A DNA stretch of 64,000 nucleotides from Escherichia coli (GCF_024298765.1 NZ_CP101210.1), one strand, 5' to 3'. Shown: positions 16,061-17,384, numbered from the stretch's first letter. Notes: a model not told the origin generated them from the letters alone. Program-made: numbers and translations.

Positions 16061-16375
16061 TCTTTCCGCGTCTCATCTTTATCGGTGAGACGCACCCTCA
16101 AAATTTCTCCTTCACTCTATAGTCTTTTCGCTTTACTCCCGTTCATTCAACTTAAGTCTCCATTTTTTTACATTACTGCTATCTGTCAGACCTCCATTTT
16201 TCTGTTGATAAAACACTCTTTTTGACGTTTTTACAGACTAATTGAACGTGAAGTGTGCAAACGATAAAAGTGTGGGAAAAATTGTTTGACTTATAAGTCT
16301 CAGAAAGTAATATGTGCGCCACGCAGCGACGATGAGCGATAAACAAGTTCTTCGAAGCACTCGTAAGAGGCGTGT

Positions 16376-16468
16376 GGTGAGGTGGCCGAGAGGCTGAAGG
16401 CGCTCCCCTGCTAAGGGAGTATGCGGTCAAAAGCTGCATCCGGGGTTCGAATCCCCGCCTCACCGCCA
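16376..16468 (+). tRNA. serV: tRNA-Ser (anticodon GCU)
   Basis: 93-nt sequence GGTGAGGTGGCCGAGAGG...CCGCCTCACCGCCA with long variable arm; anticodon loop CT-GCT-AA. Confidence 0.92.
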
Positions 16469-16471
16469 TTT

Positions 16472-16548
16472 GCATCCGTAGCTCAGCTGGATAGAGTACT
16501 CGGCTACGAACCGAGCGGTCGGAGGTTCGAATCCTCCCGGATGCACCA
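16472..16548 (+). tRNA. argV: tRNA-Arg (anticodon ACG), copy 1
   Basis: 77-nt GCATCCGTAGCTCAGCTGGATAGAGTACTCGGCTACGAACCGAGCGGTCGGAGGTTCGAATCCTCCCGGATGCACCA. Confidence 0.93.
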
Positions 16549-16746
16549 TATTCTACGTACCTTCAGCGATGAAGGTATGGAAGAGGTGGCGGTAATAACC
16601 GCAGGCACCAGGGAGGATAACGTTGCTTTAGCAACGGCCCGAAGGGCGAGCCGCAAGGCGAGTAATCCTCCCGGATGCACCATCTCTTACTTGATAGGGC
16701 TTTAGTAGCGGTATCAAAAAATCTGCAGTAAAGTAAGTTTCCCGAT
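16549..16746 (+). repeat. tRNA-cluster spacer repeat ending in a duplicated tRNA-Arg 3' end
   Basis: Hairpins cttcagcgatgaag and gttgctttagcaac, then cctcccggatgcacca without a preceding tRNA body; near-identical copy at 17103-17236. Confidence 0.7.
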
Positions 16747-16823
16747 GCATCCGTAGCTCAGCTGGATAGAGTACTCGGCTACGAACCGAGCGGTCGGAGG
16801 TTCGAATCCTCCCGGATGCACCA
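16747..16823 (+). tRNA. argY: tRNA-Arg (anticodon ACG), copy 2
   Basis: Identical 77-nt tRNA-Arg sequence. Confidence 0.92.
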
Positions 16824-16885
16824 TCTCTTACTTGATATGGCTTTAGTAGCGGTATCAATATCAGCAGTAAAATAAATTTTCCGAT

Positions 16886-16962
16886 GCATCCGTAGCTCAG
16901 CTGGATAGAGTACTCGGCTACGAACCGAGCGGTCGGAGGTTCGAATCCTCCCGGATGCACCA
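16886..16962 (+). tRNA. argZ: tRNA-Arg (anticodon ACG), copy 3
   Basis: Identical 77-nt tRNA-Arg sequence. Confidence 0.92.
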
Positions 16963-17025
16963 TCTCTTACTTGATATGGCCTTAGTAGCGATATCAATAT
17001 CAGCAGTAAAATAAATTTTCCCGAT

Positions 17026-17102
17026 GCATCCGTAGCTCAGCTGGATAGAGTACTCGGCTACGAACCGAGCGGTCGGAGGTTCGAATCCTCCCGGATGCAC
17101 CA
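17026..17102 (+). tRNA. argQ: tRNA-Arg (anticodon ACG), copy 4
   Basis: Identical 77-nt tRNA-Arg sequence. Confidence 0.92.
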
Positions 17103-17236
17103 TATTATCCGAAATCTTCAGCAATGAAGATATCGAAGAGGTAGCGGTATTAACCGCAGGCACCAGGGAGGATAACGTTGCTTTAGCAACGGCCCGAAGG
17201 GCGAGCCGCAAGGCGAGTAATCCTCCCGGATGCACC
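17103..17236 (+). repeat. Second copy of the tRNA-cluster spacer repeat
   Basis: Near-identical to 16549-16690 including the terminal cctcccggatgcacca. Confidence 0.7.
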
Positions 17237-17384
17237 ATCTTCTCCAAAAAATTTCCTTCAAAAATATCTCATTTCTAAATAACTACTTTATCCATTTCCT
17301 GAATTTTCTTCTCCTTCGCCATCAGCGACAAAATCAAGCAATTACGCTAAAGTAGCGTCATATTTTTCGACTTGCGAGAAGACC

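Follow-up and report, generated by a model that had tools for sequence, protein, structure and literature searches.

In this work we identify two spacer elements in the tRNA-Arg gene cluster of Escherichia coli, here termed E1 and E2, as tRNA-linked repeats (TLRs) lying at the raV and raQ positions of the K-12 serV-argVYZQ operon, an assignment that is near certain. It is equally near certain that they form a divergent Arg(ACG) branch of the family to which the RtT RNA of the tyrT operon and the 5S-linked RrA, RrB and RrF RNAs belong. E1 and E2 belong to an already known repeat family, and what had been observed at this locus is real and was rightly placed and described. As recounted by Stenum et al. 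2021 (PMC8144298), TLRs were first seen at tyrT in 1978 (Egan & Landy), and Rudd's catalogue of 1999 counts 22 of them spread over ten loci in K-12. What defines a TLR is that its 3'-terminal 18-19 bp are identical to those ending the tRNA or rRNA gene upstream of it; TLRs 'thus far ... have no known function' (PMC8144298). Those of the K-12 arg operon are named raQ, raZ and raV and figure in a strain-table entry, 'delta(argY/Z/Q, raQ/Z/V)', among the 22 TLR deletions; a K-12 strain deleted for all 22 exists (PMC8144298). An earlier claim that rtT RNA takes part in the stringent response or in the recovery that follows starvation for amino acids was, as told in PMC8144298, withdrawn by its own authors.

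Since the elements have long been described, named in K-12 and deleted experimentally, they hold little value as a discovery, and our additions are modest. These comprise the finding that the Arg(ACG) branch falls just below the Rfam threshold for RtT, explicit covariation for the copied tRNA tail as the 3' strand of a conserved helix that closes the domain, a survey of how copy number varies in E. coli, and the occurrence of the core behind other tRNAs in six more genera. Taken whole, the explanation presented here, which combines TLR identity and anatomy with a proposed route of processing, is in our judgement very probably correct.

Two TLRs in the serV-argVYZQ operon

The window, by which we mean the entire 64-kb stretch of DNA analysed, carries the gene order alaS-csrA-serV-argV-argY-argZ-argQ-yqaB-yqaA-gshA, that of the E. 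coli csrA-serV-argVYZQ-yqaB locus (Table 1). All four of its tRNA-Arg(ACG) genes are identical according to ARAGORN and Rfam. E1 and E2 stand directly 3' of a tRNA gene, on the same strand and within the tRNA operon, and their last 19 bases repeat exactly those at the 3' end of the gene they follow. Each is composed of a 115-nt insert directly after the CCA of tRNA-Arg, followed by a second copy of the last 19 nt of the tRNA, and 19-nt direct repeats of the tRNA 3' segment consequently bracket each insert. The original prediction had placed an exact tRNA-Arg 3' end at the close of both elements, which is upheld, and had given its length as 16 nt, which is too short: the shared tail, AATCCTCCCGGATGCACCA, matches at 19 of 19 positions in both. 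Six copies of this 19-mer are present in the window, where shuffles predict 0.00: one in each of the four tRNA-Arg genes and one at the end of each of E1 and E2. E1 is followed by an ordinary 62-nt inter-tRNA spacer, the same as that after tRNA-Arg copies 2 and 3, so that the TLR can be read as an insert of 115 nt, cleanly placed right behind the CCA, together with a direct repeat of 19 nt.

The description of two near-identical spacers of about 135 bp is likewise borne out, with 125 of 135 aligned columns identical between the 134-nt E1 and the 135-nt E2. The ten differences all lie in the first 47 nt, the final 76 nt are identical, and the alignment holds a 1-nt indel near the 5' end. Furthermore, the elements were rightly said to lack a tRNA body. 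Neither is called as a cloverleaf by ARAGORN or the Rfam tRNA model, and only the 3' strand of the acceptor and T stems has been copied, on which grounds we rejected a tRNA gene or pseudogene. Also set aside were a minus-strand 'tRNA-Arg(tcg)' called by ARAGORN at 16492-16563, an antisense image of the real tRNA, and Rfam matches to 'Plastid-ycf2' and 'Plastid-psbl-rps4', which are antisense images of real tRNAs far under the cut-offs.

As far as consensus sites can tell, E1 and E2 would both lie inside the tRNA transcription unit, with a promoter-like site 5' of serV and the sole terminator-like hairpin of the unit 3' of E2; such sites are no commoner in the locus than in shuffles. This hairpin likely marks the end of the unit.

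Table 1. Coordinates of the tRNA genes, TLRs and associated features in the window.
Feature	Position	Strand	Basis or remark
Promoter-like site 5' of serV (TTGACT, 16-nt spacer, TAATAT)	16286..16313	+	Consensus match only
tRNA-Ser(GCU), serV	16376..16468	+	ARAGORN and Rfam
tRNA-Arg(ACG) copy 1, argV position	16472..16548	+	ARAGORN and Rfam; donor of the 19-nt tail
TLR E1, whole 134-nt element; K-12 raV position	16549..16682	+	Begins at the base after the CCA of tRNA-Arg copy 1
E1 5' hairpin H1, GUACCUUCAG/CGAUGAAGGUAU region	16556..16579	+	Predicted fold; E1/E2 alignment
E1 hairpin H2, GCGGU-AAUA-ACCGC	16589..16602	+	Predicted fold and covariation
E1 closing-stem domain	16603..16682	+	Arg model R1, 105.7 bits; fold, covariation; partial Rfam RtT match
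E1 closing-stem 5' arm, GCACCAGGGAGGAU	16605-16618	+	
E1 hairpin C, AACGUUGC..GCAACG	16621-16636	+	
E1 hairpin D, GCCC-GAA-GGGC	16637-16647	+	
E1 variable hairpin E	16650-16659	+	
E1 tail, exact 19-nt copy of the tRNA-Arg 3' end	16664..16682	+	T-loop AAU, T-stem 3' strand, acceptor 3' strand, ACCA
tRNA-Arg(ACG) copy 2	16747..16823	+	ARAGORN and Rfam; followed by an 'empty' 62-nt spacer (repeat family D2)
tRNA-Arg(ACG) copy 3	16886..16962	+	ARAGORN and Rfam; 'empty' here, followed by a TLR (raZ) in K-12
tRNA-Arg(ACG) copy 4, argQ position	17026..17102	+	ARAGORN and Rfam
TLR E2, whole 135-nt element; K-12 raQ position	17103..17237	+	Begins at the base after the CCA of tRNA-Arg copy 4
E2 closing-stem domain	17158-17237	+	
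E2 tail copy	17219-17237	+	
Terminator-like hairpin and U-run between E2 and yqaB	17344..17358	+	Consensus match only

Comparison with K-12 places the elements within the named set. Common to raV, raZ, raQ and our pair are the locus, the place directly after tRNA-Arg and the 19-nt identity to the tRNA 3' end, and E1 differs from raV by a single nucleotide. K-12 carries three elements (after argV, argZ and argQ; 86-106 bits with the Arg covariance model introduced below) and the window strain two, the spot after the third tRNA-Arg being empty. In addition, raQ of K-12 has diverged in hairpins C and E, whereas the 3' half of E2 in the window is identical to E1.

A conserved helix closed by the copied tRNA tail

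The conserved hairpins that had been reported in the elements are supported by structure prediction: E1 and E2 fold at -63 and -58.3 kcal/mol, respectively, corresponding to z-scores of -6.4 and -6.6 relative to dinucleotide shuffles. The predicted fold joins the tail, AUCCUCCCGGAUGC, to the upstream arm GCACCAGGGAGGAU by base-pairing and leaves ACCA alone single-stranded, and three small hairpins sit between the two strands of this closing helix, namely AACGUUGC..GCAACG, GCCC-GAA-GGGC and one that is variable. The arm reads as the 5' acceptor strand of a tRNA (GCAUCCG) fused straight to a T-stem strand (GGAGG), and the closing helix therefore resembles stacked acceptor and T stems ending in a tRNA-like 3' end.

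We aligned 23 different Arg(ACG) elements, drawn from about 12 genera, and derived a consensus fold. The comparison across Enterobacteriaceae that the original prediction had called for, with wholly different spacers as the outcome that would count against it, instead finds elements conserved in both sequence and structure. The consensus comprises 29 pairs, 96.5% of cells hold a standard pair, and at 10 pairs both sides have changed. These values were attained by none of 500 shuffles, a control that overstates significance because the sequences are related. When the partner column is slid by 1-3 positions, the proportion paired falls to 29-52%; together with the individual compensations described below, this is the stronger evidence and is independent of sequence relatedness.

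The compensations involve the copied tail itself. In Hafnia, for example, the tRNA-Arg gene ends in AUCUUCCUGGGUGC, the tail of the element matches it, and the arm, GGGAAGAU, compensates. In Pantoea and Serratia both the tRNA and the tail of the element carry AUCCUCCU; the Pantoea arm, AGGAGGAU, compensates, whereas that of Serratia, CGGAGGAU, leaves a mismatch there. In a drifted Citrobacter copy UGC in the tail has become UAU and GCA in the arm AUG, and three outer pairs are thereby kept. The copied tRNA tail is, in short, the 3' strand of a closing helix that is kept by compensatory substitutions. Similar changes are seen elsewhere in the element: at one pair of the variable hairpin ten sequences have C-G and ten others G-C, and H2 (helix 1 of the Arg alignment) shows changes on both sides in four of its four pairs. 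H1 carries compensating changes in E2 relative to E1 (C>U with G>A). For the 5' third of the Arg elements, MAFFT does not align the structure consistently from genus to genus, H1 being present in Enterobacter-type sequences but displaced by three columns, and our claim of covariation in H1 is therefore confined to the comparison of E1 with E2.

A crude, ungapped matrix of arm-versus-tail complementarity across tRNA classes, since replaced by the structure-aware Arg alignment, favoured the cognate tail for Tyr and Lys and, narrowly, for Arg (8.0 versus 7.7 for the Pro tail). This matrix was uninformative for Pro and 5S, and for Glu it was confounded by a palindromic tail and a search window overlapping the tRNA.

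One core behind several stable-RNA genes

E1 and E2 have a 19-nt core in common with the Tyr, Lys, Pro, Glu and 5S-linked elements. Scanning one genome per species for this core, GCAACGRCCCGAAGGGYGA, returned at least 120 loci, and a list of 171 matches was compiled from the scan loci, the window and E. coli loci. Among these 171 listed matches the nearest upstream tRNA on the same strand is Tyr in 51, Lys in 37, Arg(ACG) in 27, Pro in 8, Glu in 3, Arg(CCG) in 2 and Ser in 1; in the remaining 42 it is absent or too far away, as at contig edges, in 5S-linked copies or in chance matches. Most of the tRNA-linked matches listed end in 15-19 nt identical to the 3' end of their own tRNA. A further class of core matches ends in AACTGCCAGGCAT, which we take to be the 3' end of 5S rRNA, the contig in these cases stopping before any 5S gene. 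This class fits the published description of 5S-linked TLRs (PMC8144298).

A covariance model, R1, built from the Arg closing-stem domain only, has just two hits in the window, E1 and E2, both at 105.7 bits, and recovers the Lys, Pro, Glu, Arg(CCG), Tyr and 5S-linked elements with E-values of 1e-18 to 2e-4. Its scores descend from the Lys elements of E. coli (64-78 bits) and the Arg element of Yersinia (66) through the Lys elements of Klebsiella (45-51), Pro (41-45), Arg(CCG) (41-43) and Glu (36-38) to the Tyr RtT (about 29.5; E about 2e-5) and the 5S-linked elements (26-29). Core matches outside the Gammaproteobacteria (Rhizobiaceae, Actinacidiphila, Clostridia, Shinella, Archangiaceae, Minwuia, Sandarakinorhabdus and Kaiparowitsia) score at most 13.7 bits with this model and were rejected as chance. 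The core was also found behind other tRNAs in Gilliamella, Zophobihabitans, Photobacterium, Aestuariibacter, Marinobacterium and Amphritea, genera that presumably fall outside the Enterobacterales. Across the Gammaproteobacteria one core follows Tyr, Lys, Pro, Glu and Arg tRNA genes as well as 5S rRNA, and its tail is in every case that of the gene it stands behind.

The relationship to the RtT RNA (rttR; Rfam RF00391) is one of common parts in the same order, AACGTTGC..GCAACG, GCCCGAAGGGC, a small variable hairpin and GAGTAATCC, or, written as RNA, AACGUUGC..GCAACG, GCCC-GAA-GGGC, the variable hairpin and GAGUMAUCC. In both, the tail is copied from the element's own upstream tRNA and is used in the closing helix, the RtT of tyrT-tyrV following tRNA-Tyr and bearing a Tyr tail where the Arg elements bear that of tRNA-Arg. 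They differ in that RtT holds two extra hairpins within the closing helix, whereas the Arg elements hold two outside it, on the 5' side, and in that RtT contains the tpr ORF, of which the Arg elements have no likeness. RrA, RrB and RrF are 5S-linked TLR small RNAs located between terminators T1 and T2 of rrnA, rrnB and rrnD (PMC8144298). With the Arg elements they have in common the core hairpins and a tail that copies the 3' end of the upstream stable RNA and pairs with an upstream arm; in a 5S-linked copy, for example, a GGCAGUU arm pairs with AACUGCC. Unlike the Arg elements, they lie behind 5S rRNA with two flanking terminators. Their processing to discrete RNAs and their binding of Hfq and CsrA have been demonstrated, while the 19 tRNA-linked TLRs score below 0.01 in a CsrA-binding predictor (PMC8144298).

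In a 3-kb search the Rfam RtT model gives full-length matches on exactly E1 and E2, at 29.2 and 26.8 bits, and E1 searched alone scores 34.7 bits (E = 1.9e-5) over model positions 46-130 only. The 3' two-thirds (hairpins C and D and the tail) aligns well, and the 5' third of the model finds no counterpart inside the Arg closing helix. At 27-35 bits, E1 and E2 do not reach the curated gathering cut-off of 45 bits. The Arg(ACG) elements of two further genomes and the one 5S-linked locus tested also fall under it, whereas the Lys, Pro, Glu and Arg(CCG) elements pass (52-101 bits), and the tyrT-tyrV RtT units of K-12 score 133-138 bits. None of the genomes examined carries NCBI pipeline annotation in its arg spacers, which a sub-threshold RtT score would explain if the pipeline uses the Rfam cut-offs.

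We searched 5,426 complete E. coli genomes with the 115 nt of E1 that precede its tRNA tail. Matches were found in 5,156 genomes, at one to six copies each (median 2), giving 10,557 copies, all of them chromosomal and none annotated. With the Arg(ACG) branch and the one tested 5S-linked locus lying under the RtT cut-off, some 10,500 copies in complete E. coli genomes go unannotated, and such Arg(ACG) TLRs will keep being 'rediscovered' by sequence scans.

Five architectures of the operon were examined, each with four tRNA-Arg genes and with one to four TLRs. FDAARGOS_403 has four TLRs, one after every tRNA-Arg; K-12 has three, after the first, third and fourth; the window strain and strain 104 have two, after the first and fourth; and N3 and EcPF7 have one, after the fourth, N3 with an additional truncated remnant after the third. 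The spot after the last tRNA-Arg is filled in all five. Recombination or gene conversion among the tandem tRNA/TLR units is plausibly enough to explain this polymorphism, and would also account for the identity of the 3' half of E2 to E1 in the window while raQ of K-12 diverged. Such repeats offer a recombination substrate within an important tRNA operon, and natural strains that carry one to four copies in an otherwise identical operon provide a ready test of their effect on tRNA-Arg maturation.

Proposed processing and competing accounts of origin

The anatomy of the elements suggests how they may be handled in the cell. The arg TLRs would be transcribed as part of the tRNA operon, RNase E would cleave directly behind the CCA of the TLR, within the U-rich trailer, and the tRNA 3' exonucleases would then trim the cut RNA back to the helix, because the element recreates the terminal helix, CCA and U-rich trailer of the neighbouring tRNA. 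A structured RNA of about 80-135 nt would be released, and the next tRNA would keep its standard leader. We regard this account of processing as evenly balanced between right and wrong. The generally accepted model for tRNA operons, as outlined in PMC2241853, has RNase E cut inside the polycistronic transcript and RNase P act afterwards. In the 173-nt form of RrB the 3' end lies 3 nt past the repeat, and the authors of that study proposed, for the 5S-linked TLR only, that RNase E recognises the repeat like 5S rRNA (PMC8144298). The 3'ETS-leuZ RNA (PMC8144298) may be likened to the arg TLRs as an RNA that tRNA-processing nucleases free from a tRNA operon's spacer or trailer. This is a functional analogy only. 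3'ETS-leuZ has no sequence kinship with the arg TLRs and no copied tRNA tail, and its role as a small-RNA sponge has been demonstrated. In the searchable literature we found neither mapped RNA ends nor Northern blots for raV, raZ or raQ and, on the expression or processing of arg-operon spacers, rttR or 'RtT-like' elements, nothing relevant beyond PMC8144298. Copy number would shift through recombination between tandem tRNA/TLR units, and concerted evolution would keep the tail identical to the tRNA, with the 5' arm following by compensatory change.

TLRs are conserved across the Gammaproteobacteria with helices that are clearly selected, yet the family is without known function. The viability of a strain lacking all 22 suggests that it is dispensable, and this viability together with the variable occupancy of the operon argues against an essential role. 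One view would make TLRs mimics of the stacked acceptor and T stems of the neighbouring tRNA (a 'minihelix'), or of the 5S terminal helix, and not passive spacers. The three-hairpin core would take the place of the T-loop, and the helix would be held matched to the host gene by compensatory evolution. In such a role TLRs may be true substrates of RNase P, RNase E, RNase T/PH and the CCA-adding enzyme, and perhaps competitors; if so, the output of spacer RNA would be coupled to tRNA maturation. Alternatively, the core may be a mobile but non-autonomous unit inserting some 19 nt from the 3' end in genes for stable RNAs. What our data show is the helix with its covariation and a core spread over several tRNA species; enzyme recognition and mobility are putative, and we consider the pair doubtful.

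That the elements might instead be neutral debris of tandem duplication, that is, pseudo-tRNA fragments with neither selected structure nor role in a recombining array, strikes us as unlikely. The Arg element of Yersinia does hold about 35 nt of tRNA-Arg body (32 of 37 positions identical) and the Tyr RtT a piece resembling a T-arm, so that an ultimate origin by partial gene duplication is plausible. Copy number is also unstable, as the remnant in N3 illustrates, and all 22 K-12 copies can be deleted and have no known function (PMC8144298). Against debris stand a core conserved across orders of the Gammaproteobacteria on the elements of at least six tRNA species, helices maintained by compensatory substitutions, folds far more stable than those of shuffles, and a site after the last tRNA-Arg that is occupied in each of the five E. 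coli architectures. The original prediction of tandem-duplication relics holds to the extent that copy number fits tandem recombination and that relatives retain pieces of the tRNA body; it fails in that a named, conserved family with a helix under compensatory substitution is more than a relic.

The same prediction had raised an integrase-mediated origin, given that tRNA 3' ends are attachment targets. On this account a small element carrying its own tRNA 3' end entered the T-loop region of the tRNA, leaving the 19-nt end as an att scar and the 115-nt insert as its remnant. The geometry of an intact tRNA, an insert and a direct repeat running from the T-loop to the CCA is a fitting one, and tyrosine integrases that target the T-loop are said, in work attributed to Williams in 2002, to leave such direct repeats at tRNA genes. 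Filled and empty sites coexist in one operon and vary between strains, which tandem tRNA recombination explains equally well, and a homologous core beside different tRNA species implies past movement between loci. The insert is, however, just 115 nt long and has no credible ORF, and the neighbourhood holds alaS, csrA, tRNAs, yqaB, yqaA and gshA, with only csrA and yqaB adjoining the operon, and no integrase or mobile-element gene or remnant. The elements occupy the same chromosomal locus in about 12 genera, and all of the copies in the E. coli census are chromosomal. Moreover, the same core with a 5S tail stands behind 5S rRNA genes, which to our knowledge are not a typical integrase target, and the insert carries an arm complementary to the supposed scar and kept so by compensatory change, for which an att relic would have no need. 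We judge integration to be very unlikely and, as an origin of the elements, unsupported.

Finally, small protein genes, by analogy with tpr (the 29-aa 'protamine-like protein' annotated in K-12 within rttR, inside the tyrT RtT unit), have a negligible claim: although E1 lies inside a 94-aa open frame (16421-16705), this sole frame starts in tRNA-Ser and reads through tRNA-Arg, no plus-strand ORF of at least 30 aa overlaps the body of E2, the 1-nt indel between E1 and E2 breaks the frame, the frame equivalent to tpr meets a stop (GGA UAA) in the Arg elements by our own reading of the sequence, and substitutions track base-pairing and not codon positions.

Variation among TLR copies in the arg operon

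In the window strain, the 76-nt 3' half of E2, the tRNA-linked repeat (TLR) after the fourth tRNA-Arg(ACG), is identical to that of E1, its counterpart after the first, whereas in K-12 raQ, which occupies the same position as E2, hairpins C and E have diverged (GCGCCAGC and GAACGTCAGTGAGTC). Gene conversion among TLR copies inside the operon of the window lineage is therefore suggested by these sequence comparisons. E. coli strain N3 carries a truncated TLR 3' of its third tRNA-Arg: core and tail copy are both deleted, and the 5' hairpin region (TATTCTCCGTAATCATCAGTGATGATGG...) runs straight into the normal spacer between tRNAs. This unit is either a copy in decay or a recombination product.

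Positions of TLR copies and associated features
Feature	Sequence	Position
GGA motif AUGGAAGAGG, H1-H2 linker of E1	window	16576-16590
GGA motif AGGGAGGAU, closing stem of E1	window	16608-16618
E2	window	17103-17237
Minus-strand 'tRNA-Arg(tcg)' (ARAGORN; rejected)	window	16492-16563 (-)
raQ, E. coli K-12	L003	858-992
Truncated TLR, E. coli N3	L125	1822-1923
Arg-linked element, Yersinia nurmii	L078, reverse-complemented	120-281
CpoB/ybgF thermometer RNA (RF02782)	L046	3984-4122
CpoB/ybgF thermometer RNA (RF02782)	L037	256-394
CpoB/ybgF thermometer RNA (RF02782)	L010	1288-1426
CpoB/ybgF thermometer RNA (RF02782)	L030	44-194

GGA motifs and antisense matches

E1 contains GGA motifs in the linker that joins hairpins H1 and H2 and in its closing stem, and csrA lies directly upstream of the tRNA operon that bears it. 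Even so, a CsrA-binding probability below 0.01 was assigned to all tRNA-linked TLRs by a published predictor (PMC8144298).

The minus-strand tRNA-Arg(tcg) call, which covers part of the genuine tRNA at the argV position and extends into the start of E1, was rejected as a mirror-image artefact of real tRNAs, as were the weak antisense Rfam matches to 'Plastid-ycf2' and 'Plastid-psbl-rps4' found on every tRNA.

Divergent and distant elements

The TLR/RtT core is also present in Marinobacterium (L019), Amphritea (L041), Aestuariibacter (L107), Neptuniibacter (L111), Gilliamella (L017, L018, L074, L075), Zophobihabitans (L030) and Photobacterium (L060, L081), all of them genera from outside Enterobacterales. 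Here the upstream tRNAs are Arg(CCG), Glu, Pro, Lys and Ser, and the exact match between tail and tRNA end has been lost in some elements (L019, L041, L075).

The 162-nt Arg-linked element of Yersinia nurmii begins with a terminator-like hairpin and retains, ahead of the core, about 35 nt of tRNA-Arg body spanning the anticodon arm to the T-loop (32/37 identical); its layout resembles that of a shortened tRNA copy whose T-loop has received the core. Some Tyr-type units of Citrobacter, Kosakonia, Phytobacter and Trabulsiella (L004, L013, L036, L057, L119) have tails that start like the end of tRNA-Tyr (AATCCTTCC..) and continue as unrelated sequence, and may be truncated or terminal members of tyrT-type arrays. 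At two core matches in Pectobacterium zantedeschiae (L051, L052), which score just ~21 bits with the covariance model built from Arg elements, there is no upstream tRNA and a copied tail is not recognisable; an A-run and a hairpin follow the core match.

Upstream of lysT-type tRNA operons bearing Lys-linked TLRs lies the CpoB/ybgF thermometer RNA, which is the usual neighbourhood of that operon.
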